Of a stretch of DNA of 32,000 nucleotides, positions 1 through 22,219 are shown one piece after another (the first letter of the stretch is position 1; each line of letters opens with the position of its first letter). The notes under the pieces were generated by a model. That model had not been told where the DNA came from, did no database searches, and saw only the letters and a program-made list of their open reading frames with translations. Position numbers and translations under genes: made by a program. The DNA is taken from assembly GCA_963718915.1 (NCBI GenBank), contig CAVRAI010000004.1, positions 210,001 through 242,000 of the forward strand, in the 5' to 3' direction. The DNA comes from an uncultured Chloroflexia bacterium. Its GTDB lineage: Bacteria > Chloroflexota > Ktedonobacteria > Ktedonobacterales > JADMIN01.

Positions 1-788
1 GATAGCTCCGCACCGCAGATGACGAAGAGCGAGTATGCGTAGAAGAAGATGAGGACGACGAAGACGAATCCCGCCACTGTGCCGAAATGTTGCGGTTGCA
101 GCACCTCGCGGGTGTAGACCGGGAAGATGAGGATATAACCCTGCGCCAACACAGCGCCGAGCAGCGCGCCCAGCCACGTATGGCGCATCGAGACGCCGCC
201 AGGGGTGACGACACTGTAGAGTGTGAGCAAGAGCAGGAAGTTCAGCGCGAGGCTGGTAAACAGCGCAATGGCCGAAATCAGCGGTTCGTCTGCCAGACGC
301 GAATGTGGGATTGGCGTAAGGCCAATGCCGACATTGACGACCGGCGTAAAGGTTGCTGAGAGGATCATTGTGGGCAATGCCGCCGCGAAGAGCAGCAACA
401 TCAGGAGGGCGACGCGATTCTGGTCGAGAAAGCGGCGCTGCTGGCGGCGGAAGATGACACAGAGACAGGTCTCGATGACGACGAAGAAGCGGGTACCATA
501 CCAGAGTGTTATCGGCAGTCCGAGCAGGACGAGGATAAACGGCGCGTGTTCGATGGTATCGGCAAATGAGGAGACCGCCGCGGCTGTCACACGGTCTGGC
601 AGCAAACGCACGATGGCGGTTACGGCCTGCTGCTCGGTATGGTCACTGGTGATTCGCAGAAAGATGCTGATCAGCACCAGTTCGAGGCCGAGAACGGAGA
701 ATAGCCCCATGATGCAGGTGTATGCCAGCAACCGCGCCAGGTTCCAGCCCCAGTCCCGGTCGAATTTCTGCCAGATCGCTATGAGCAC
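1..788 (-). CDS. YihY/BrkB-family integral membrane protein; 3' end runs off the left edge of the window
   Basis: Absent from the ORF track because it has no stop inside the window. My minus-strand translation is open from 821 down to 1. It reads ...IWQKFDRDWGWNLARLLAYTCIMGLFSVLGLELVLISIF...WYGTRFFVVIETCLCVIFRRQQRRFLDQNRVALLMLLL...GTVAGFVFVVLIFFYAYSLFVICGAEL. This is the multi-TM YihY pattern (F-x-x-x-E-x-x-L-x-x-I-F/W...R-x-F, C-terminal GAEL). An in-frame TGA lies at 824-822. Candidate starts are GTG 788-786 and ATG 710-708, so the start is uncertain. Confidence 0.6.
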   Translation of the reverse strand, partial: MLIAIWQKFDRDWGWNLARLLAYTCIMGLFSVLGLELVLISIFLRITSDHTEQQAVTAIVRLLPDRVTAAAVSSFADTIEHAPFILVLLGLPITLWYGTRFFVVIETCLCVIFRRQQRRFLDQNRVALLMLLLFAAALPTMILSATFTPVVNVGIGLTPIPHSRLADEPLISAIALFTSLALNFLLLLTLYSVVTPGGVSMRHTWLGALLGAVLAQGYILIFPVYTREVLQPQHFGTVAGFVFVVLIFFYAYSLFVICGAEL

Positions 789-978
789 AGCGGTACCGAG
801 CCTTTCGCCGCTGAGATGCTCTCAATCGGGGCGAATCCGTCATGTGAGTACTCATCGCGTTTCCCAGAGCATATGCCTCAACGTATTTTCTGTCGAGAGT
901 TCGTCGCGTTTCTGTGAAAACTCTCAGAATGTCCCAAGGTACTGGGTAGCGAATGGGCGGTAAAATCGGAGCAAGCGC

Positions 979-2112
979 ATGAGGATAATTCCACTGCCAG
1001 CGGAGGCAGAGGCGCTCCTGCCGCAGTTAGGTGTGGAGACCGCTGATGTCACGCGCGTCGAGGCGATGGCGGGCGGCCTCTCCGGCGGGCGAATTTTCCG
1101 GCTCTGGCTGCGGCATCCTGATGGCGACCACGAGCAGACACGTGTGCTGAAATATGCCGAGCCGCTGGAAGGCTGGCTGGGTGACGTATCGGGCGATACG
1201 CTGATTCGTGAGGCGCAGCTTGCCGCCTCAGGGCTGTTGGCCGACCTGCCGCACACTATCGCCACGCCGACGCTCTCCGTCGCGTTTCGCGGGCCGCGGG
1301 AGCATCCTGAAGGCGCGGCGCTGCTGATGCGCGACGAACAGCGCAATCTGCTGCATGATCCCTATTGGACGCCACCGGGGAGGATTCCATCTGCTGCCGT
1401 GGCAATGGTTGACCGACTGGCGCGGATGCACGCGCGCTTCTGGAAAAATCCCCACCTGGATGATCCCGCGCTGGGGCTAATGTCGCCGGAGCAAGCGCTG
1501 CTGGTGACGGGGCCACTGGGTGTGGCGGCGCGGTTGGCCGCTGGCGATACGCTGCCTTACCTGTCGGTCTCCGCCGAGAGCTGGCAGCTATTCTTTGAAT
1601 TGGCGGGCGTGGCTGCAACCGAGCGCTTTCAGGCGATCATGAACGAGCCGGAGCGGATCACGCGCGCTATTAGCAGGCTGCCACGGACGCTGGTACACGG
1701 TGATGTTTGGGGACCAAATCTTGGCTGGCTTCCTGCGAACCATAGTGTTCGGAGAAGGCTTCTGCTACTCGATTGGGCGCTTGCGCTGGCTGGCCCCGCA
1801 ACCTACGATCCGCTCTGGCTGTGCAGCACATGGCTGACAGTTGACCCGACGCGCGTGCTAGCGGTCTATCGTTCCAGGCTGGTTCGCGCGCTACAGATGC
1901 ACGGACAATCGCTCGATGACGCGATCTGGCTGGCTCTCGCCGACGCGGGCTATCTGCGGACGGCGCTGACCTGTGGCGAGGCGATGGCGCGCACGGCGAT
2001 TGCGGCTCCCGCTGGCGTGGCGCGACACATGGCGCTGGCGCGGCTCCGCTGGTGGATTGCGCGTGCGCTCCGTGCGGCGGATCGGCTGGAAGGAAGAGAC
2101 GCGGGCGGTTAA
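979..2112 (+). CDS. Aminoglycoside/choline-kinase-like phosphotransferase (APH family)
   Basis: 377-aa ORF with GGAG upstream of the ATG. It has the catalytic-loop pattern LVHGDVWGPNLGW (H-x-D-x4-N) followed by LLLLDWALA (the D of DxG/DW). The N-terminus is a G-rich kinase lobe (AMAGGLSGGRIFRL). Confidence 0.7.
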   Translation: MRIIPLPAEAEALLPQLGVETADVTRVEAMAGGLSGGRIFRLWLRHPDGDHEQTRVLKYAEPLEGWLGDVSGDTLIREAQLAASGLLADLPHTIATPTLSVAFRGPREHPEGAALLMRDEQRNLLHDPYWTPPGRIPSAAVAMVDRLARMHARFWKNPHLDDPALGLMSPEQALLVTGPLGVAARLAAGDTLPYLSVSAESWQLFFELAGVAATERFQAIMNEPERITRAISRLPRTLVHGDVWGPNLGWLPANHSVRRRLLLLDWALALAGPATYDPLWLCSTWLTVDPTRVLAVYRSRLVRALQMHGQSLDDAIWLALADAGYLRTALTCGEAMARTAIAAPAGVARHMALARLRWWIARALRAADRLEGRDAGG

Positions 2113-2141
2113 AACCGCGCCTGAATGGCCTGCGGCCACAA

Positions 2142-2163
2142 AACCCGCCTGCGCGGGTTCTTA
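2142..2163 (+). terminator. Hairpin terminator candidate after the kinase gene
   Basis: AACCCGC-ctgc-GCGGGTT is a perfect 7-bp stem (2142-2159). It is preceded by AAA and followed by CTTACC, so the T-tract is weak. Confidence 0.45.
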
Positions 2164-2243
2164 CCAACCAGCGGCTTTCCTTCACGCCGCTAATGCGGTA
2201 GACTATGCCTGCAAGCCACGATGCATAGACGCTGGAGGGCGAT

Positions 2244-3809
2244 ATGGCAACGCCGCAGATTTTCGTCAGTCATAGCCACACAGATAACGAGTATTGCCGT
2301 GTTTTCGTGGCCGCGCTTCGAGAACTGCTGAGCGATAGTGGCACGGTCTGGTACGACGAGCATAACCTAGGCTGGGGCGCGTTAAGGCAGGCCATTGACC
2401 GCGAACTGCAACAACGCCAGCACTTCATCGCGATTCTCAGCCCGGCGGCTGTCACTTCGGAGTGGGTGAATACCGAGATCGATGCGGCACTCTCACTGCT
2501 GCGCAAGGGGAGCATGCGGACAATCCAGTTTGTCACAGCCGTTCCCTGTGATGTGCCTCCTACACTGGAGCGTTATAAACGCATCGAGCAGGCTGGTGGG
2601 TTGCCTTATTCTCCGGCAGAGGCCGCGATACGCGCGTATCGCGTCATCACTGAGATTGCATCGAAGCACGTGCTTCAGTCCATGCCACCTCGCGACGCAC
2701 CGCCGCTGCCCATCCTTCAGCAAACTTCCTCTGTCCTCACAAGTGCGGCTGGTCCCGCAATGCAACCTTCGGTGAATGCGCCGGTTCCCTTGCCATCCGC
2801 TCCTGCGGCCAGGACCGTCGCAATTTCCGATGTTCCTGTATATTCATCTGTTAAGAATCTGGCAAAAGGCTCGCTTCTTCGTATTGAGCTACTATTTAGC
2901 GCTATTATGGCGGCCATCATGCTCATCATTGCTAGTGTCTTTGTTTGGTATGGCCAAATACCTGGAGCAGTTCCGCTGGGGGTGTATGAAGCCATGTACG
3001 GCTGGCTACCTAATGGTGACGAAACTGGCGGCCCTCTCTTTAACCCCTTCAGTGCTCTTGGAGCATTTATTGTCCTGGCAGCACTCTCGTTCGTCGTCGG
3101 ACGCACCGTCACAAAGCGATCTGGGAACGTCAGCGCAGGCCAGCAGGCAGGGTTTTACTTCGGCCTTATCAGCGGAGTCTTGTATACACTTATAGACCGC
3201 TTGGTACGTGCGATCACCGTCTTGTTCTACTCCAACAGTTGGAGTGATGCTACCATAGTTAATCAAAACGATCTTGTCGGAATCTTACTTCTGGCCATCC
3301 TGCTTGGCAGCATTACCGGGCTGGGCGTTGGCACATGGGGTAGCAAAGCCGTTCCGTTGTCTGGGCGATTAGGGTCTTATTCGAAGCAGTCTCCAGATAT
3401 CATATACCCGTTGCGGATCGGACTTGTTGTCAGTGGTATCTTGAATTTTATCTTTACCGTACTGAGTCTCTCGTTTTATTTTCCCTTCCCCATGATCGTT
3501 ATATTGTCTCTGTTAGGCTCCGGCTTCGCTGGATTTTATGCATACAGACGCCCTGGTGGAACCCGTGATGGCCGCCTTGCTGGTATGTGGACAGGAGCAT
3601 ACGTCGCATCGTGGCTTACCCTCTCAAGCTCTCGGGTGATCTTTGGCTATGGCGTCAGATACTCTGCATTTCCCGGCGTTTCACCAATTGTTAAATTGTG
3701 CATACTGGCGGTCCTCTTCTGTGTACTTGGGCTTGGCGCGGGCGCCCTTGGTAATCTGGCGAGGCGATGGTATATGGGCCAGCAAAGCACGAATGTTCCA
3801 TTCCAGTGA
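2244..3809 (+). CDS. TIR-domain protein fused to an eight-helix transmembrane module
   Basis: GGAGGG RBS 5 nt upstream of the ATG. The N-terminus reads IFVSHSHTDNEY..VWYDEHNLGWGALRQAI..HFIAILSPAAVTSEWVNTEIDAAL, which fits the TIR_2 pattern with Glu78 (2475-2477) in the W-x-x-x-E position. A Pro/Ala-rich linker follows. After it come about 8 hydrophobic 20-25-aa segments, for example LLFSAIMAAIMLIIASVFVWY and VKLCILAVLFCVLGLGAGALG. Confidence 0.75.
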   Translation: MATPQIFVSHSHTDNEYCRVFVAALRELLSDSGTVWYDEHNLGWGALRQAIDRELQQRQHFIAILSPAAVTSEWVNTEIDAALSLLRKGSMRTIQFVTAVPCDVPPTLERYKRIEQAGGLPYSPAEAAIRAYRVITEIASKHVLQSMPPRDAPPLPILQQTSSVLTSAAGPAMQPSVNAPVPLPSAPAARTVAISDVPVYSSVKNLAKGSLLRIELLFSAIMAAIMLIIASVFVWYGQIPGAVPLGVYEAMYGWLPNGDETGGPLFNPFSALGAFIVLAALSFVVGRTVTKRSGNVSAGQQAGFYFGLISGVLYTLIDRLVRAITVLFYSNSWSDATIVNQNDLVGILLLAILLGSITGLGVGTWGSKAVPLSGRLGSYSKQSPDIIYPLRIGLVVSGILNFIFTVLSLSFYFPFPMIVILSLLGSGFAGFYAYRRPGGTRDGRLAGMWTGAYVASWLTLSSSRVIFGYGVRYSAFPGVSPIVKLCILAVLFCVLGLGAGALGNLARRWYMGQQSTNVPFQ

Positions 3810-3885
3810 GCGAGTGAAGAACGCTATGCCACAAGAGTTCAAGAAGTTCAAATCGCGAACCATGAGCAGTAGAGTCCCCTGGCAT

Positions 3886-3915
3886 GGGAATGGATGGCGC
3901 GGTCCATTCATTCCC
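3886..3915. terminator. Hairpin between convergent genes (bidirectional terminator candidate)
   Basis: GGGAATGGATGG-cgcggt-CCATTCATTCCC forms a 12-bp stem with one G.U pair. It lies between the TIR gene stop (3809) and the DUF899 stop (3958). There is no clear U-tract. Confidence 0.4.
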
Positions 3916-3957
3916 TGAGTAAAACCAGTGGTTTCTGTCCGATCCGCTGTAAGCAGG

Positions 3958-4586
3958 CTACTCCTGGGTGGGTGTATTGTAACGCGCTTCCCAGTCTTCC
4001 TGTCGTCCAAGAGGGGTCAGGTCGAGGAAGTTGTAATTTCCGAGGAGGATATCAACACCGCGTCCTGTCGTCGAGTATGAATGCAGGATCTGCTCGCCGT
4101 CGCGCAGGAACACACTCAGCCCAGGTTTCTCGCCGTTCTCGTCGGTGGCGTCGAAGTCATAGTTGAAGTCGCTGCCGTTCGAGGAGAACCACGGCACAGT
4201 CCAGTTCATACGGGCCTTGTATTCCTCAAGCTTCGCCAATGGCGCGCGCGAGACGAGAACCAGTGTGGTGTTGCTGTATGCAGACCGGACAGGCGGCTGG
4301 GAATGTTGTTCGTAAAGTTGGTGCAGCCCTCGCAGCCGTTCTCCCAACTCGGATCAAACATGAAATGGTAGACGATCAACTGACGACGGCCGTCAAAGAG
4401 ATCGAGTAAGCTCGCCTTGCCGTCTGGGCCCTCGAAAATGTACTTCTTGTCCATCCTGACCATCGGCAATCTGCGGCGTTCAGCGTTGAGCCTGTCTCGC
4501 GCATGGGTAGCTTCCTTTTCTTTGAGAAGGAGTTCGTTGCGCGCGACAAGCCACTCGTCTCGTGAGACGATCCGTAGATGGTCCAT
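3958..4586 (-). pseudogene. DUF899 thioredoxin-like protein, interrupted by a frameshift near 4270-4285
   Basis: The gene is split across two track ORFs in different frames. ORF 4206..4682 carries the N-terminal part: [12 protein letters not shown]...[37 protein letters not shown] 3958..4347 carries the C-terminal part: [42 protein letters not shown]. Together they give the canonical DUF899 order (YHFMF...GC..C...HL...TLV.VSRAP...W.FPW.SS). The true start is ATG 4586-4584 with an AAAGGAGAA RBS. Confidence 0.65.
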
Positions 4587-4823
4587 CCTAATTCTCCTTT
4601 GGATTGATGAAACGGATAACTCTGATTCGCCATGCAGTCGCCTGGAGCGTTTGTGCAATGGGCACGTAACACAGCGTACCAACAGCGCTCAGAGGCTGGC
4701 TTCTTCTATCTTGCTGTTTTCGTCATCCGGGGCTTCCGCAGAGCAGCATGAACCAGAGGGTATGGCTGAGATTCGTCGAGGCATTCAAGTTCTGGCATGG
4801 ATTCCCAGGTAAACAGAGTTCCT

Positions 4824-6837: not shown

Positions 6838-7356
6838 ATGACGGATCGCATTCTTATCGTCTCTGGAGATATTACCCTCCTCGATGTCGATGCCATCGTC
6901 AACGCGGCCAATAGCTCGCTGCTTGGCGGCGGTGGCGTCGATGGCGCTATTCACCGCGCGGCTGGCCCGCAACTGGCGGAGGAATGCAGAACACTTGGCG
7001 GCTGTCATACAGGCGAGGCCAAGATCACGCGCGGTTACCGGCTGCCCGCGCGCCACGTGATTCACACGGTTGGCCCGGTCTGGCGTGGCGGCGACGATGA
7101 TGAAGATGAGTTGCTGGCGAACTGCTACCGCAACAGTCTGGCGCTGGCGCGACAGCATAGCCTCCACACGATCGCGTTTCCCGCGATCAGCACGGGCGCC
7201 TTCGGTTTCCCTGGCAAGCGCGCCGCCCGTATCGCCGTCGCCGAAGTGATAAACGCTCTGGCAAACGCCGAACGGCCTGAGCAGGTGATATTCGTCTGCC
7301 ACGACCCTGAGACACGCGACTATTATGAGACAGTCCTCCTCGACCTCATTCCTTGA
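6838..7356 (+). CDS. ymdB: Macrodomain protein, O-acetyl-ADP-ribose deacetylase (YmdB type)
   Basis: The sequence is near-colinear with E. coli YmdB motifs as recalled from memory. Matching stretches are [55 protein letters not shown] and [23 protein letters not shown] is present. Confidence 0.85.
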
Positions 7357-7423: not shown

Positions 7424-9072
7424 TCAGTTGGTGAATGTGAACGATTTGAGCATTGGCTCGAAGATACCCGTATCGTCCTGCGTGAACGACGTCGTGCGGC
7501 TCACCAGCACAATCACATAGGCGCGCCCCTGATGATGGCAGGCCAGAATGACCATGTGCAGCGTCACACCTTTATCGCTCACGTCATACTCGCGCCGCTG
7601 CCACTGCTCGCCGCCGATGGTCTGGGTTTTTGCCGCTAAGGTGCTTTCCGAGAAGGTGATGTTCTGCTGTTGCGCGGCGGCTACCTCGCCCTGAATGATA
7701 TTGACATCGCTGAGCGCGCACGCCGCCTGAGCCTGTTCGATGCTCACCAGCGATGACGAGTTCGGCAGTGTGTAGACATCGATATAGTCGTAGCCGCTGG
7801 CCGCTTTCTGCTCTGGCTCGACGGTCCACGTTTCGGGATAGTTCACGCCGTAGCGCGAACGTGAGCTGGCAAACTGCTTGAGATGCGCCCCAGGTGTCGT
7901 CGGCGTGCCGTTTGTCGCCGGGCCGGACGCTGTACAGAGCGCCGATGACGTGGTCGCCCCTGATGGATTGAGTTTATTCAGCACTCGTGGCGCGAGCACG
8001 ATGGCTCCCGCGACCACCGCTGTAACGAGTACCAGCAGCACCACAACGGTTGTCACGATGCGGCGCGAGGATGACTTGCCTTTGGCGGACTCTTCCGGTG
8101 AGCGAAAACCAGGAATCCTGACACTGCTGAGTGTCTCTCCCCAGCGCTGCTGAAGCGACCTCGCGCGTGAGCCGACCTGCTGATACCACGATGAGTCGTC
8201 ATCCGTCGTCATCTGTCGGCCATAGTCCTGGCGTGACCCGCGCTGGCGCTGCGCGTCATACTCATCGCTATACCCACTACCCCCGTAGGTTCCGCTGCCG
8301 TAGCCATCGTCATAGGGCTGGTCGCGCGAGGTAGACGGGCGGTTGTAACGATTATCGGCGGAAGAGGGTTGCGAGCGGCGGGGCGCCCCGGCTCTTCATA
8401 CCCTTCGTACCCGTCTGGCGGATAACCCTGGCCCTGACGCTGACCCTGACCATAATAGGCGCTCTCGTCGCGGCGACCGCGCGACGGGTCGGTTGGAGGG
8501 CGGCGAGACCGGCCATCTCCCATATCAGGCGGCGGCATCTGCTGCTGTCGGTCATCCCTTGACGGATATCTGCTGCGGGAGTCTGGCCCGCGCTGTGGGC
8601 CGGGGCGCAGATTGCGGGGCGCGCGCGGATCGTTGAACGGATCATCCAGCGGATTGGGCTGCTGCGCGCCATACTCGCTGCTGGCATAGTCATCGTCGTA
8701 GCCATCCGGCTCCTGGCGCCCGCGCGATCTGCTGCGCTGATCTCGGCGCAGGTCTGTGCGCGATTCATCCCAGGTGTCGTCCGCACGACCGCGAGAGTTT
8801 CGTCGCTCGCCACGCTGGTCTTCCGAACCATAGGCGGGGCCATAGCGAGATGCGTCATCGGGTGCGTAGCCAGGGTCATAGCCACTGTCGTCGCGCTCAT
8901 CGTAATCCCAGCCATCGTCGTGCGACCCCTGCGGCGCATTGCGCGATGAAGGGTAACGCTGTTGAGAAGAACGGGGAGACCGACCTGCTGGTGGCGTAGT
9001 CAGCCGGGCGCCACAGTGGCTACAGGTGCGTTCCCCCGGCCTGACTTCCGTGCCACACTGCCAGCACTGCAT
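7424..9072 (-). pseudogene. Zinc-ribbon / disordered-region / TM / PsbP-DcrB-like ectodomain protein, apparently one gene broken by a frameshift at about 8377-8392
   Basis: ORF 8209..9072 starts MQCWQCGTEVRPGERTCSHCGARL (a CxxC..CxxC ribbon), followed by a D/R/G/Y/S/Q-rich tract. After about 8390 that composition continues only in the frame of ORF 7424..8212: ...RRSQPSSADNRYNRPSTSRDQPYDDGYGSGTYGGSGYSDEYDAQRQRGSRQDYGRQMTTDDD.... The annotated frame meanwhile turns into unrelated sequence (PLPPIIVTTARLPRATSPMTMATAAE). The downstream part has a TM segment (IVTTVVVLLVLVTAVVAGAIVLA) and a YGVNYPETWTV... PsbP/DUF1795-like domain. If the sequence is taken literally, these are two ORFs sharing an ATGA overlap at 8209-8212. 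Confidence 0.55.
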
Positions 9073-11952: not shown

Positions 11953-13254
11953 ATGAACGACGTCGTACAGAACATCATCCACTTCGTCGTCACTTTTATC
12001 TTCTCGCTCATCTTCCTGATGGCGGCGGCGACGATCATGGTCTACTGGGAACGCAAACTCATGGCGTTCATGCAGGATCGTGTCGGGCCTCTCCATTACG
12101 GGCCTCAGGGCACGCTCCAGACCATCTTTGACGTCATAAAGCTCATGTTCAAAGAGGACGTCAGGCCTGGCAAGACAGACTTCGTCGTCTTTCGTCTTGC
12201 GCCAATGATCTTCTTTGCTCCGGTGATTACCGCGTTTGTGGTGCTGCCGTTCTCGCCCTATCTGACGGCTGGCGCGCTGGCTACTGGCATCATCTACTAT
12301 GTCGCGCTCAGCTCGATTGACGTGATCGGCGTGTTCATGGCGGGCTGGGGCTCGAATAACAAGTATGCGCTGATCGGTGGTCTGAGGTCGGCGGCGCAGA
12401 TGATCTCATATGAGCTTCCGCTGGTGCTCTCCATCGTCCCGGTGGTGATGCTGACGAGCGTTCTTACGCCAGCGTGCAGCGGTTCCTTGCCGGACCTCAA
12501 CGTCTGTGGCGTTGGCTCGATCTCCTTCACGCAGGTTATCGCGTCGCAGATGCGGCCCGAAGCCCCCTGGCTCTGGTTCATCCTGCTTCAGCCGCTTGGG
12601 CTGCTCATCTATTATACCTGCGGGCTGGCCGAGACCAATCGTTCGCCATTCGATCTGCCCGAGGCTGAATCCGAACTGGTCGCAGGCTATCTCACGGAAT
12701 ATAGCGGCCTGCGCTGGGCGATGTTCTTCCTGGGTGAGTATGGCAATATGGCTATCGTTTCGGCGGTGGCGACCGCGCTCTTCCTTGGCGGATGGTCGGG
12801 TCCGGGCGCGGCTATTGGCTTCTGGACTGGCCTGTTTGGAAGCTTCTGGGGGCAGGTGGTCTTCAATATCATCTGTGTCTTCTGGTTCGTCTTCAAAATG
12901 GGCGCGCTGCTGACGCTCTTTGTCTGGATTCGCGCGACGCTGCCACGCCTACGCGCCGACCAGTTGATGCGGTTCGCGTGGCTCTTCCTGATCCCACTGA
13001 CGCTTTTCAATATCCTGCTGACAGGCGCGTTGCTGCTGCTGCCGGTGGGTGATGTCGCGCGGATTGCTATCTCGGCAGTCGCGAACTGGCTGCTGATGTT
13101 TATCTTCATCTTCACCTTCCGCCGCGTGACTGGTGTGAACCCGCTCGGGCGACTTCCCATCTGGCTGCGTGGGCGCACTCCCACGGCACATACCAATCGC
13201 CCGGCGACTGCGGAGGCAAAGGCGAAGGGCGTGCTGGCCGAGACGCATCGCTAA
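11953..13254 (+). CDS. nuoH: NADH-quinone oxidoreductase subunit H with a C-terminal extension
   Basis: VYWERKLMAFMQDRVGPLHYGPQGTLQTIFDVIKLMFKED... and AETNRSPFDLPEAESELVAGYLTEYSG are the NuoH/ND1 signatures. A GGAGGG RBS is present. Confidence 0.9.
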   Translation: MNDVVQNIIHFVVTFIFSLIFLMAAATIMVYWERKLMAFMQDRVGPLHYGPQGTLQTIFDVIKLMFKEDVRPGKTDFVVFRLAPMIFFAPVITAFVVLPFSPYLTAGALATGIIYYVALSSIDVIGVFMAGWGSNNKYALIGGLRSAAQMISYELPLVLSIVPVVMLTSVLTPACSGSLPDLNVCGVGSISFTQVIASQMRPEAPWLWFILLQPLGLLIYYTCGLAETNRSPFDLPEAESELVAGYLTEYSGLRWAMFFLGEYGNMAIVSAVATALFLGGWSGPGAAIGFWTGLFGSFWGQVVFNIICVFWFVFKMGALLTLFVWIRATLPRLRADQLMRFAWLFLIPLTLFNILLTGALLLLPVGDVARIAISAVANWLLMFIFIFTFRRVTGVNPLGRLPIWLRGRTPTAHTNRPATAEAKAKGVLAETHR

Positions 13255-13292
13255 CTGTGCGTGCTGACTGTGCATGCTGACTGTGCGTGCTA
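13254..13292 (+). repeat. Tandem 13-nt repeat x3 (ACTGTGCRTGCTG) starting in the nuoH stop codon
   Basis: Read directly: actgtgcgtgctg / actgtgcatgctg / actgtgcgtgcta. A small hairpin, GGCTGG-ttgattg-CCAGCC, follows. Confidence 0.85.
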
Positions 13293-13305
13293 GGTGGCTG
13301 GTTGA

Positions 13306-13334
13306 TTGCCAGCCAGACGGATATGGCATATACT
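13306..13334 (+). promoter_or_regulatory. Sigma-70-type promoter candidate for the valS leader
   Basis: TTGCCA (13306-13311), a 17-nt spacer, then TATACT (13329-13334). Confidence 0.45.
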
Positions 13335-13340
13335 GAATAG

Positions 13341-13622
13341 CGTGTTTGCAACTGGCGATGACCAGGAGGAGTAGGCGGGAACGCGCCACAAGAGACGGGA
13401 AGCCACTGGCTGAGAGCTTCCCCTGGCAGTGCGCCCGCGCGAAGTGACCTGCGAGCTAGTGCGGTGAACGATTCTCAGAGAATCCTAGCCGCATATGGGA
13501 TGCGCCCATTATCGCGCGATTGAGGCGAGCGTGCCGCTACAAGGTTATCGGCGGTAGTTCGCGAACAAGGGTGGTACCACGAGTCTTCTCGTCCTTTCAG
13601 GGAGAAGGCTCGTTTTGTTTTT
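13341..13622 (+). promoter_or_regulatory. T-box riboswitch leader, valine specifier (GUG), transcription-attenuation type
   Basis: The conserved T-box sequence AAGGGTGGTACCACG lies at 13567-13581. A GAUGA K-turn-like element is at 13357-13361 and an AGAGA bulge motif at 13391-13395. The specifier-loop candidate GAA-GUG-A has its GUG at 13444-13446, followed by a purine. A terminator hairpin plus U-run sits immediately 3' of the T-box. The leader lies directly upstream of valS. Confidence 0.8.
13581..13622 (+). terminator. T-box leader terminator (intrinsic)
   Basis: GAGTCTTCTC-gtcctttcagg-GAGAAGGCTC is a 10-bp stem with one G.U pair. GTTTTGTTTTT follows it. Confidence 0.75.
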
Positions 13623-13660
13623 CCGCGGTATGTACGGCGGACGGAGGAAAGGGCTGGAAT

Positions 13661-16378
<2,718 letters not shown>

Positions 16379-16655
16379 GCGGGCGAACTGGGAGAGATGG
16401 GCTAGCGTCTCAGCGACAGGTTGTACGATAGCCCATCATCAGGATGGTTCAGGATGGCATGGACAGTCGTGGCAGCGAGGAGTCGGAGGCCGATGGATCG
16501 AAAGGCACCCAGGCGGCGTTTGACGTGGTTTGGGAAGTCGCGTCCCGGTACCGTTGGCGGGTTCTGGCGGCGTACGCCACAGAGCGGCAACGAGCCTGAT
16601 ACCTTGATGGCTTCGCCGACGCGCGAGCAGGCAGAGTCGCAAGCTAAGGTATCAC

Positions 16656-16697
16656 GATGGCCAACGCTGCCGAGATGGCCATCGCTGCCGAAATGGT
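16656..16697 (+). repeat. Tandem 18-nt repeat, about 2.3 copies (ATGGCCANCGCTGCCGAR)
   Basis: atggccaacgctgccgag / atggccatcgctgccgaa / atggtc. In the frame of the long ORF this encodes WPTLPRWPSLPKWSPLP. Confidence 0.8.
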
Positions 16698-16717
16698 CTC
16701 CACTACCAGGAGGAGCA

Positions 16718-17395
16718 ATGGGATCAGTTGATGATGAGTCGCTTGCCACGTCGAACGAGACCCATCAGACCGACCCTCAGTTGGCCCCACCATGGGAGCA
16801 GCCTGCTTCCGATACGTCGGACGCTCAGCGTGTTCCGCCGTTTACTCCCTGGCGATTCTGGTTGGCTTCTCGCAGTCAGCAGGTAGGCCTGGCGGCGATT
16901 GTGGGCATTCTCATACTCGCGGCTCTGCTTGGCAGGATTCTACTTGGCGACATTTTCCCCTCAGACACGCCTGATACCGGCACGATAACGCCGACCACCG
17001 GGCGCGTAGCGCATGTCGTGGCGCCATCCACAGTGGCTGCCCCGACGCCAGTTCCTACGTCAGTTCCATCCCCCACAGTAGCGCCTGTGCGCAACACCCC
17101 CGCGCCGGCGTTCTCCATTGCATTCACCTGCGCCAGCGGGGTCATCTTCGGGCGAGGGATGGTATGCATACACACACGTCCTGACGCTGCGGTGAGCCTG
17201 TCCGTGCGCTATTGTGATGGCAGTTACGCTGGAGGGAAAGACCTGCGCGGCAATGCACACGCAGATGGCAGCGGCAACTATACCTGGCGGTGGATTGTCA
17301 TCACCTCGTGCGCCGGAAAAGCCACCGCGACGGTGACGGCCAAATCCTCCGGGCAAACTGTCACGAAGAGCACGACATTCATCGTTACCCGCTGA
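16718..17395 (+). CDS. Single-pass membrane protein with Pro/Thr linker and Cys-containing beta-rich ectodomain (hypothetical)
   Basis: AGGAGG lies 6 nt upstream of ATG 16718. The TM segment is VGLAAIVGILILAALLGRILLG, followed by a TPTTG...PTPVPTSVPSPTVAP linker. The alternative start ATG 16607 would add the WPxLP repeats. The track start at 16421 is unlikely. Confidence 0.5.
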   Translation: MGSVDDESLATSNETHQTDPQLAPPWEQPASDTSDAQRVPPFTPWRFWLASRSQQVGLAAIVGILILAALLGRILLGDIFPSDTPDTGTITPTTGRVAHVVAPSTVAAPTPVPTSVPSPTVAPVRNTPAPAFSIAFTCASGVIFGRGMVCIHTRPDAAVSLSVRYCDGSYAGGKDLRGNAHADGSGNYTWRWIVITSCAGKATATVTAKSSGQTVTKSTTFIVTR

Positions 17396-20819: not shown

Positions 20820-20919
20820 CCGCGGATTGTCGGCTGGATTCATAGCGTGAACTCTTCGGCATGTCGGCTCGATGCTGGCATGCCGTTGGTGTTTGCGGCG
20901 GGGAGCGTGGAGGCTGACT

Positions 20920-22219
20920 ATGAATAGGCGGACTGAACAGAAACGAGACGATGTACGGATAGCAGGCAGCGGAAGCATGTCTGGCGCGCTGCCCGCTGAG
21001 CTGGAGTCGATCTCGCTCTATCTTCACGTGCCGTTCTGCCATGCCAAGTGCCACTACTGTGACTTCAACTCCTACGCTGGTATGCTCGGCCAGCGAGAAG
21101 TCTACGTGGATGCGCTGGCGCGGGAAATTCGGTTGGCAGGGCAGCGCGCGCGACTGGCGGATGGCACGCCGCGCCGTTGCCGCACCATCTTCTTCGGCGG
21201 CGGAACGCCCAGCCTGCTGACTGCCGCGCAGGTGGAAGGGTTATTGCGCGAGGCGCGAGCAGCCTTTGCCGTCGATGATGATGCTGAGATTACGCTGGAG
21301 GCCAACCCAGGCACGCTGGAATATGGGCGGCTCGATGCCCTGCGTGCAACCGGCGTCAATCGGCTGAGCATGGGCGCGCAGAGCTTCGATGCGGGTTTGC
21401 TGCGCTGGATGGGGCGCATTCATTCCCCCGAAGAGATCGAGACAGCGTTCGCGGCGGCGCGTCGAGCCGGGTTTACTAGCATCAACCTCGATTTCATCTT
21501 CGCGCTGCCCAACCAGTCGCTGGCCACCTGGGCCGATACATTGGAGCGCGCGCTGGCGCTTGGCCCAGAGCATCTCTCGCTCTACTCGCTGATCGTCGAG
21601 GAGGGCACCCCGCTCTTTAGCTGGGTGCGCGAGGGACGAGTGATTCCAGCGGACGACGACACCGCCGCCGATATGTATGAGCACGCCATGGAGCGGCTGG
21701 CTGCGCGCGGGTTACGGGCAGTATGAAATCTCGAACTGGGCGCTTCCTGGCCATGAGAGTCGCCACAATCTGACCTACTGGCGCAATCTGCCGTATATAG
21801 GACTGGGAGCAGGCGCGCATTCCTGCTTTGCGGGCCATCGCTTTGCCGAGGCGAGGCCTATCGCTGGCTATATCGCCAGGGTGCGCGCTTCTCTGGCCGC
21901 GAACGAGGCGGGTGGAGGAACGACGGCCCTGCCAGCGGGCGCTATCGTCGAGGATGAGGTTGTCTCATCAGCGATGGCCATGGCGGAAACGGCGATGCTG
22001 GGGCTGCGGCTCAACGCTGGTCTCTCGCGCTCGGAGTTCGCCGCGCGCTATGGCTGCTCCTTCGAGCAGGTCTTCGACGAGAGCTTGGCCGATGTGCGCG
22101 GGTTGGGGCTAATCGAGACGGTTGGCGACCGCATCCGGCTGACAGAGCATGGGCGGCTGCTGGGCAATGAGGTTTTCGCGCGGCTGCTGCCAGACGAGCC
22201 AGCGGCGATAGCGGGTTAG
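20920..22219 (+). pseudogene. hemW: Radical-SAM HemW/HemN-like (oxygen-independent coproporphyrinogen oxidase family) gene, frameshifted near 21704-21715
   Basis: ORF 20872..21726 carries LYLHVPFCHAKCHYCDF (CxxxCxxC). It ends ...MERLAARGLRAV*. ORF 21677..22219, in the +1 frame, continues with GYGQYEISNWALPGHESRHNLTYWRNLPYIGLGAGAHS. That is the expected continuation in one polypeptide. The start ATG 20920 has GGAGG 6 nt upstream. Confidence 0.8.

Follow-up and report, generated by a model that had tools for sequence, protein, structure and literature searches.

A stretch of 32,000 nucleotides from an uncultured Chloroflexia bacterium placed in the Ktedonobacterales (assembly GCA_963718915.1, contig CAVRAI010000004.1, positions 210,001 to 242,000; hereafter 'the window') contains a gene, at 2244-3809, whose product joins an N-terminal TIR domain through a proline- and alanine-rich linker to a body of eight transmembrane (TM) helices. 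Here, we describe this TIR-TM protein as a variant of the Ktedonobacterales-type N-terminal TIR cassette family—an unnamed family that appears undescribed as such in the literature searched—carrying a membrane module from an unnamed 4-TM family. Single-gene proteins combining a TIR domain with a variable sensor are known already; what is new is the polytopic partner built from two 4-TM units (2x4-TM), together with the mapping of the insertion and of the cassette boundary. The exact fusion is known from one sequence, and we infer that its product is most likely a self-contained defence or cell-suicide protein.

The TIR domain

An initial annotation of the window, made from the letters of the sequence, had read the first ~135 residues as a TIR domain, and profile searches, structure prediction, and structure comparison all agree. 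Pfam TIR_2 (PF13676) matches residues 6-114 (E 1e-13; 52.2 bits against a gathering score of 28), and ThsB_TIR also matches (27.8 bits against 21.2). Profiles from PADLOC and NCBIfam (PDC-S66, SAVED_TIR, several ThsB profiles, and Retron-TIR) match through the TIR core only. An AlphaFold (AF2) model of residues 1-149, computed with 40 relatives, has five strands alternating with helices and a predicted local distance difference test (pLDDT) score of 91.3. Its best Foldseek neighbours are SPARTA TIR-APAZ, AbTir (TM-score 0.76, 28% identity), SARM1, and BtpA; there were 53 PDB matches at E<=1e-3, and the best 50 are mostly TIR domains, with some of the DNPH1 nucleoside hydrolase fold. A sequence search of the PDB with the TIR domain likewise gave AbTir (7uwg, 8g83), Cat1 (9mud), PdTIR (3h16), and BtpA as best matches.

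The initial annotation had also pointed to a glutamate, E78, at the W-x-x-x-E position of NAD+-cleaving TIR domains. In HMMER alignments, W74-V-N-T-E78 falls on the 'DWTNYE' of AbTir (7uwg, 8g83) and on PdTIR (3h16) and Cat1 (9mud), which puts E78 at the predicted position of the catalytic glutamate; the aligned residue of AbTir is its catalytic E208. E78 is invariant in all 43 members of the TIR cassette family described below, and W74 is found in 42 of the 43. Furthermore, all eighteen invariant positions of the family's TIR (F7, V8, S9, H10, D14, C18, L25, V35, W36, D38, E39, G43, F61, S66, S72, V75, E78, and A81) are kept. The TIR-TM protein thus belongs, on the strength of these comparisons, to the TIR superfamily and, by motif, among the enzyme-type (NAD+-cleaving) TIRs. 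With an AbTir/SARM1-type fold in the model, and with the catalytic glutamate and the family-invariant residues intact, the domain is equipped for catalysis.

The TIR cassette family

A search with the full-length TIR-TM protein returned forty-two relatives, four of them labelled 'Ktedonobacterales bacterium', all of which match only residues 1 to ~135-180, at 45-83% identity. The C-terminus is an FGE-sulfatase domain in thirty of these relatives; the TIR-TM protein has no match to this domain (PF03781), and its C-terminus consists of eight TM helices instead. Further C-terminal modules in the family are PKD after a single TM helix (P0031, P0032), DUF929 after a single TM helix (P0025), TPR (P0028), two or three TM helices (P0034), a polytopic module unrelated to the 4-TM unit treated below (P0033), and a domain of ~160 residues without known identity (P0040-P0043).

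The boundary of the constant part can be placed by comparison with the closest paralogue, P0002 (locus L002), a TIR-FGE-sulfatase protein. Its DNA is 75.7% identical to that of the window by blastn from window position 2174 (70 nt 5' of the ATG) to 2599; in a MAFFT alignment of the two loci, similarity is visible from ~110 nt 5' of the ATG to ~2640, beyond which the sequences are unrelated. The common 5' region holds two hexamers, TTCCTT and TAGACT, separated by 16 nt, and a GGAGG Shine-Dalgarno (SD) sequence 5 nt 5' of the ATG (Table 1). The hexamers form a promoter-like pair that may act as the promoter of the gene, and a sigma-70 scan made no promoter call at them. Judging from these alignments, the TIR domain and its 5' region (~70-110 nt) are a shared cassette to which many different C-terminal modules are attached across the family.

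P0002 is the second of two tandem TIR-FGE-sulfatase genes (L002 2055-16543) whose context, with a serine recombinase, HTH_17, DUF3987, an N6/N4 methyltransferase, and Mrr_cat-ParA, resembles an integrative element. Contig L003 bears a degraded copy of the same element, in which the first TIR-FGE gene is split. The remaining family loci examined hold solitary TIR genes without a conserved neighbour; the fixed housekeeping context of a core gene, an arrangement that the initial annotation had considered, was not seen. The GC content at third codon positions (GC3) is lowish (0.58-0.60) in those family genes measured. Two members depart from the common plan: P0007 is a TIR-FGE gene whose C-terminal half is out of frame and reads as Arg/Ser/Thr/Pro-rich nonsense, and in P0029 the family TIR is preceded, on its N-terminal side, by another, divergent TIR-like region.

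The membrane module

A Pro/Ala-rich linker followed by about eight TM helices had been predicted from the letters, and this layout is upheld. The linker, of ~70 residues (the Pro/Ala-rich stretch covers approximately residues 136-205), is a flexible tether between the TIR domain and the membrane body. On its 3' side, hydropathy peaks, AF2 secondary structure, and the positive-inside count agree on eight long helices; the AF2 model of the module, which had a two-sequence alignment as input and a pLDDT of 47, was used for helix counting only. Each predicted inside loop has two to four Lys or Arg residues and each outside loop none or one, a positive-inside pattern that points to an N-in/C-in topology with the TIR domain in the cytoplasm, where the initial annotation had expected it.

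Relatives of the membrane module are few. A word-index search of 5.8 billion proteins with residues 188-521 returned only the protein itself, even at E<=10. Exhaustive phmmer searching of 1.84 billion representatives found P0044, a protein of 247 residues (E 7.9e-32, 45% identity) that matches TM1-TM4 only and continues into a Pro/Gln/Tyr-rich tail; the second phmmer match, P0045, is a low-complexity alignment of thirty-two residues and was treated as chance, as was a match in a Bacteroides contig (L001; 40% identity over 64 TM residues) from a contig scan with the full protein. A profile of the first four helices and P0044 found nothing further, and the last four helices matched no database protein in the word-index and exhaustive phmmer searches. 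The short contigs that carry P0044 have a paralogous gene for a 4-TM protein with a PQ-rich tail downstream and an upstream gene ending in '...QPPGYPPQQ', which suggests, as far as contigs of this length can be read, a tandem array of small 4-TM proteins with long PQ/Y-rich tails. Another stand-alone 4-TM protein, also with a P/Q/Y-rich tail, is encoded on contig L026 of a distant relative, directly after a homologue of the window's APH-like gene (50% identical) and convergent with it; this placement may be coincidental, or it may reflect where the TM module came from. All the relatives of the 4-TM unit that were found are small stand-alone 4-TM proteins with PQ-rich tails; the family seems very rare in databases and is without a Pfam assignment.

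The eight helices are two tandem copies of one such unit, as shown by profile comparison. Profile A4, an alignment of four sequences of the 4-TM family, was compared by hhalign with TM5-TM8 and gave a probability of 95.3%, an E value of 2.3e-8, and a score of 52.8 over 127 aligned columns, well above all controls (100 global shuffles, mean 12.0, standard deviation (SD of the scores) 2.5, maximum 25.2; 100 local shuffles, maximum 22.4; reversed sequence, 15.4) and about fifteen standard deviations over the shuffle mean. Plain BLASTP found no internal repeat; the repeat is seen only by profile comparison. The family motif, a cytoplasmic loop G-x-x-x-(K/R)-(R/x)-S-x-x-x-x-(D)G-x-x-AG-x-x-x-G and a GxGxG-rich fourth helix, is present. 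Copy 1 has the conserved outside loop GWLxxGDxTGGPLFNPFS and the inside loop G-R-T-V-T-K-R-S...AG, and both copies have a basic cytoplasmic loop (…G-R-T-V-T-K-R-S-G-N-V-S-A-G-Q-Q-A-G… in the first and …Y-R-R-P-G-G-T-R-D-G-R-L-A-G… in the second). The 2x4-TM body could have originated by fusion of two neighbouring paralogues.

The module has no significant match to a named family, and the earlier impression that it belongs to none stands. The nearest Pfam entries are DUF5518, matched by three of four members of the 4-TM family (best E 1.2e-4; 20.6 bits against a gathering threshold of 27), and DUF3792, matched by two of four (best E 0.002; 17.1 bits against 31.3). These matches span most of the profile length; all scores are under the gathering thresholds, the two copies in the window give hardly any match (E 0.095 and 0.84), and neither Pfam family has an assigned function. 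Remote homology of the 4-TM unit to DUF5518/DUF3792 is possible on these scores. The modules of P0033 (hhalign probability 9.6%) and P0034 were considered as relatives of the 4-TM unit and are not convincing. The PHROGs database holds no relatives of the unit, and only unannotated TIR-containing families were matched there.

Gain of the gene at a variable spot

The initial annotation had suspected acquisition from codons ending in A or T. The GC3 of the TIR-TM gene is 0.554 (TIR 0.644, linker 0.514, TM1-4 0.539, TM5-8 0.507), more than three standard deviations below that of the window's other twenty-three genes (0.714±0.049, minimum 0.624). Acquisition is further supported by synteny. Scanning metagenomes with the APH-like protein encoded upstream gave syntenic loci of close relatives (APH 80-82% and QueG ~90% identical), and blastn homology to four of them (L010, L011, L013, L014) ends at window positions 2090-2095 and restarts at 3954-3958. 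The intervening segment of 1862 nt, which holds the whole gene, its 5' region, and both hairpins described below, is missing from these loci: L010 and L011 have ~56 nt only at this spot, and L013 and L014 have ~830 nt with a gene for a peptidase S51 (PepE-like). In more distant relatives, APH directly adjoins QueG and DUF899 is missing too. The absence of the segment from syntenic relatives indicates a lineage-specific gain at a locally variable spot. On this comparison of loci, we regard the APH-DUF899 intergenic spot as a small hot spot of gene gain and loss within a conserved block, and the TIR-TM gene as accessory and recently gained. The segment has no target-site duplication, no flanking direct repeat longer than 7 nt, and no mobile-element gene; Rfam and tRNA scans of the window found nothing, and hence no tRNA integration site. 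The window contains no paralogue of the TIR-TM gene.

The two hairpins noted in the initial annotation as bracketing the gene are both there, the upstream one being slightly shorter (2142-2159) than the 2142-2163 first given. Both are without a U-tract, and so neither is a canonical intrinsic terminator; a terminator scan made no call at the upstream hairpin, which lies 30 nt past the stop of the APH-like gene. On the minus strand, the downstream hairpin folds with -15.8 kcal/mol.

The neighbours of the gene are an APH-like gene, a frameshifted DUF899 gene, a QueG gene, and a Macro-domain gene, all of which are conserved in syntenic loci without the TIR gene. Profile scans of the window's proteins found no ThsA, SIR2, cyclase, SAVED, or STING, in agreement with the earlier statement that no such partner is adjacent. 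The Macro-domain gene was examined as a Thoeris-II-like partner and ruled out, being conserved in syntenic loci that lack the TIR gene (87% identity in L014, 66% in L024 and L025).

Two genes of the window are split. At the DUF899 frameshift, a 1-nt deletion by comparison with two relatives, ATACCAGC in L010 corresponds to ATACAGC in the window, and L010, L013, and L014 each have the orthologue as one intact open reading frame (ORF); the split gene is either a pseudogene or an assembly error. A HemN-like radical-SAM gene is likewise divided into two overlapping ORFs in different frames. Together, the two cases indicate that errors or pseudogenes occur in this assembly.

Table 1. Positions of the TIR-TM gene, its parts, and other features (window coordinates unless a contig is named)
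Feature	Position	Strand	Basis or remark
TIR-TM gene, complete ORF, 521 residues + stop (TIR, linker, 2x4-TM membrane protein)	2244..3809	+	ATG start
5' region common to window and P0002 locus: TTCCTT (2177-2182), 16-nt spacer, TAGACT (2199-2204), GGAGG (2234-2238)	2174..2243	+	blastn, MAFFT
TIR domain, residues 1-135, cytoplasmic by predicted topology	2244..2648	+	Pfam TIR_2, PDB sequence matches, AF2, Foldseek
Codon of E78, putative catalytic Glu in W74-x-x-x-E78	2475..2477	+	alignment to AbTir
Pro/Ala-rich low-complexity linker, residues 136-204	2649..2855	+	paralogue similarity stops where linker starts
4-TM unit copy 1, residues 205-372, TM1-TM4	2856..3359	+	phmmer match to P0044, L026 relative
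4-TM unit copy 2, residues 375-521, TM5-TM8; divergent repeat of copy 1	3366..3806	+	hhalign with family profile A4
Segment missing from syntenic loci of close relatives, 1862 nt	2096..3957	.	blastn
Upstream hairpin AACCCGC-CTGC-GCGGGTT, 7-bp stem	2142..2159	+	-11.2 kcal/mol, z -2.65
Downstream hairpin (arms of 12 nt, loop of 6 nt), lying where the TIR-TM and DUF899 genes converge	3886..3915	+	-19.2 kcal/mol, z -3.1
DUF899 gene as two overlapping ORFs (3958-4347, 4206-4682)	3958-4682	-	1-nt deletion within 4270-4286
Stand-alone Macro-domain protein, 172 residues, 3 kb from TIR gene	6838-7356	+	Pfam E 1e-49
HemN-like radical-SAM gene as two overlapping ORFs in different frames	20872-22219	+	20872-21726 Radical_SAM, 21677-22219 HemN_C
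S51-bearing segment	L013 7664-8492; L014 10294-11122		226-residue ORF at L014 10393-11073, - strand
Apparent tandem array around P0044	L005 1-33, 270-1013, 1257-2015		
Stand-alone 4-TM protein, P/Q/Y-rich tail	L026 11067-11756	-	38% identical to window TM1-4
Second Pro-rich membrane protein, beyond L026 4-TM gene	L026 11725-12435	-	

Comparison with known systems

The best sequence match among solved structures is to TIR_2 NADases of the AbTir/PdTIR type (7uwg, 7uxu, 8g83, 3h16; E 7e-8). AbTir and the TIR domain of the window have the motifs FxSHxxxD, VWYDE, and W-x-x-x-E in common. However, AbTir and PdTIR are soluble proteins whose N-terminal part is a coiled-coil or another region, whereas the TIR of the window is itself N-terminal and tethered to an eight-TM body, and its activity is predicted only. 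Also close are the TIR-FGE-sulfatase (TIR-FGS) proteins of Ktedonobacterales, with a TIR domain 55-83% identical in the same N-terminal place and a similar Pro-rich linker; in P0002, the 5' untranslated region is also ~76% identical to that of the window. These proteins are annotated only as 'SUMF1/EgtB/PvdO family' or 'TIR domain-containing', and their family is unnamed. With the FGE-sulfatase (C-type-lectin-fold) domain replaced by a polytopic module, the window protein is integral to the membrane rather than cytosolic. FGS/FGE-sulfatase domains have been proposed as C-terminal invasion sensors in conflict systems of multicellular bacteria, the other domains always being N-terminal (PMC7159879, PMC10907252).

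Thoeris ThsB is likewise a stand-alone TIR protein, and the ThsB_TIR match (27.8 bits) is accompanied by weak matches to several PADLOC ThsB profiles. In Thoeris, however, ThsA (SIR2/SLOG or Macro-TM) adjoins ThsB, whereas no ThsA lies beside the gene described here, and ThsB has no eight-TM body; the sole Macro protein, 3 kb off and with 172 residues, has a Macro match only and is syntenic in TIR-less relatives. An effector of the CBASS or Pycsar type was rejected, since PADLOC SAVED_TIR covers the TIR part only (profile 15-108 of 404) and no cyclase or SAVED is found in the window. The match to the PADLOC candidate PDC-S66 is confined to the TIR core (profile 151-228 of 282; residues 6-84), and Retron-TIR (NF042941) reaches 31.3 bits against a cut-off of 600, again over the TIR part only (profile 341-429). 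Because the defining partners and domains were tested for and are absent, the TIR-TM gene is not Thoeris, CBASS, Pycsar, Retron-TIR, or PDC-S66.

The anti-phage systems TIR-I to TIR-IX of Escherichia coli (PMC11350192) and SpbK are also self-contained TIR proteins, and their defence depends on the catalytic residues of the TIR. SpbK matches residues 4-28 of the window protein only (E 0.005), and the E. coli systems are likened to it by the TIR fold alone. Twelve TIR-containing systems of E. coli protect against phage and need their TIR active-site residues, and one or more of them have TM segments (PMC11350192).

Animal Toll-like receptors combine a membrane-spanning region with a cytoplasmic TIR domain, as the window protein does, and P0025 and P0032 each even possess an extracellular domain, one TM helix, and a cytoplasmic TIR. 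The polarity of the window protein is reversed, with its TIR N-terminal; it has no leucine-rich-repeat (LRR) ectodomain, and its TIR is of the enzyme type with a catalytic glutamate. The likeness is analogy, not architectural homology.

Interpretation

The initial annotation had named, with no preference, a one-gene abortive-infection or membrane-stress sensor and a receptor-like signalling protein as candidate functions, and both may still apply. The explanation that we favour, with about even confidence, is that the TIR-TM gene encodes a single-polypeptide, membrane-tethered TIR NADase, recently acquired, whose membrane module clusters or reorients the enzyme on an envelope event and so leads to abortive infection or cell death. 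TIR NADases (SARM1, AbTir, SPARTA, TIR-SAVED, TIR-STING) need oligomerisation. By analogy with other bacterial TIR immune proteins, the TIR would be inactive as a monomer and would cleave NAD+ when several copies come together, with depletion of NAD+ or a signal derived from ADP-ribose (ADPR) as the outcome. The variable C-terminal module would set when the TIR fires. The polytopic module of the window protein would keep the enzyme dispersed in the membrane, and an envelope event (e.g. phage adsorption, DNA injection, membrane damage, or depolarisation) would cause clustering or reorientation, after which the affected cell, part of a filamentous bacterium, would stop growing or die, as abortive infection or programmed cell death. 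That the TIR is the constant part of the family and the C-terminus the variable part marks the TIR as the effector; the membrane module would most likely be an anchor or sensor.

Several observations weigh against this explanation. The TIR-TM protein is identical to database protein P0001, which forms a one-member cluster from one 1.05-Mb contig, and the fusion is a singleton among ~15 billion proteins; selection on the fused form is thus not demonstrable. The window is a housekeeping region (APH-like, DUF899, QueG, Macro, nuo subunits, ValRS, S6/SSB, HemN, RecJ, and ClpB) rather than a defence island, the stand-alone 4-TM relatives lie in a context without defence genes, and a search of viral contigs found no relatives of the 4-TM unit. 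From so poor an AF2 model of the membrane module, no mode of sensing or clustering can be read. Finally, at least one single-base frameshift nearby makes errors in the sequence possible.

We also entertain, more tentatively, a wider reading of the family, which we consider possible but rather doubtful: that filamentous Ktedonobacteria possess modular one-protein TIR 'receptors', in which a constant TIR-plus-promoter cassette has been recombined onto interchangeable sensors (a lectin fold in the cytosol, an extracellular PKD or DUF929 domain following one TM helix, or a polytopic membrane body). The window gene would be a new member, in which a duplicated 4-TM body couples an event at the envelope, such as attachment of or injection by a phage, damage to the membrane, or a signal from a neighbouring cell, directly to NAD+ cleavage. 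If true, the protein would be the bacterial counterpart, of the enzyme type, to a Toll-like transmembrane receptor, and one that has only just arisen.

Among the alternatives, it is unlikely, though worth weighing, that the protein is a signal-generating receptor, with a module that senses an envelope or extracellular cue and a TIR that makes a messenger of the cyclic-ADPR type or an ADPR conjugate for an unlinked effector or receptor. Such a protein could follow a Thoeris-like logic with an unlinked effector, or it could serve non-lethal signalling or developmental control in a filamentous bacterium. AbTir, to which the TIR is closest in sequence and fold, makes a cyclic ADPR isomer; ThsB_TIR and the PADLOC ThsB profiles match weakly; and the family members with an inside TIR, one TM helix, and an extracellular PKD or DUF929 domain have a receptor-like topology. 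However, no ADPR-binding effector (SLOG, Macro-TM, SIR2) is linked to the gene here or at five other family loci, and the Macro gene 3 kb away is conserved in TIR-less relatives. A recent single-gene insertion is, moreover, unlikely to rely on a pre-existing unlinked partner.

We think it improbable that the gene is an accident or artefact, be it an unselected, very recent chimera of the TIR cassette with a duplicated 4-TM gene or an assembly join of two genes. The singleton status, the atypical GC3, the sharp break of paralogue similarity at the linker, the 1-nt DUF899 frameshift and split HemN in the window, and the visibly frameshifted family member P0007 all speak for such an origin. Against these stand the ORF of 521 codons, unbroken through sequence of ~51% GC, the retention of all eighteen family-invariant TIR residues, and the family motifs and perfect positive-inside pattern in both 4-TM copies. 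A strong SD precedes the start of the TIR, and none precedes the in-frame internal start codons of the linker (residues 143, 147, 173, 177, and 183); both other reading frames of the linker contain stops. In addition, other TIR-linker-TM fusions of the same family occur in independent assemblies (P0025, P0032, P0033, and P0034), and P0032 is present on seven contigs from several sources. For an artefactual fusion taken by itself, we put the chance as very small.

A reversal of roles, with the membrane module as a killing device (a holin-like or pore-forming 4-TM repeat) and the TIR as its trigger or regulator, would fit the TM-only effectors often seen in CBASS, Pycsar, and type II Thoeris systems (10.1101/2024.10.26.620412). 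We give it little credence: the Pfam hints from one 4-TM family member, BaxI_1 (E 0.016) and a 4-TMS phage holin family (E 0.8), are very weak and far from significance, PHROGs gave nothing, the stand-alone relatives lie in tandem arrays and in housekeeping settings that do not point to toxins, and the constancy of the TIR beside a variable C-terminus marks the TIR as the effector. TIR domains can serve as adaptors, and TIR paralogues are numerous in the lineage, some of them in tandem pairs and one, P0029, with two TIR regions; yet a non-enzymatic scaffold that recruits TIR paralogues to the membrane (cf. animal Toll-like receptor adaptors) is hardly credible, since all 43 of 43 members keep the W-x-x-x-E glutamate, which, with the strictly conserved motifs FVSHSHxD and WYDE in common with the enzyme AbTir, argues for catalysis.

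Other features of the window and of related contigs

Three further ORFs are recorded here. Upstream of the APH-like gene, an ORF of 246 residues (223-963, plus strand) has no Pfam match and ~83% identity in four related loci; by this conservation it is a real gene. The product of window 8209-9072 (minus strand) has an N-terminal zinc ribbon, followed by a long, highly charged stretch of low complexity in which Arg, Asp, Gly, Pro, and Tyr abound, and it is conserved in L014 (82% identity over residues 1-230). On L026, an ORF of 1434 residues (12452-16756, minus strand) appears, by eye only, to be aconitate hydratase-like with a long, intein-like insert (…GYGCTTC/IAEGT…VHNC/IGNSG…).

Significance

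Bacterial TIR proteins are ancestors and mechanistic models of the innate-immune TIRs of plants and animals. How a sensor turns on a TIR enzyme with neither an NTPase nor a second messenger involved is clear for a few cases only. The TIR-TM protein offers a minimal single-gene case, a cytoplasmic TIR on a polytopic membrane body, that suits the study of membrane-controlled TIR activation, and its 4-TM unit belongs to an undescribed family. Should the protein prove inert, it would still document how often such chimeras form and are lost. It is also an example of how new immune-type architectures arise, here by the joining of a TIR-plus-5'-region cassette to different C-terminal modules, with a break point that can be mapped.

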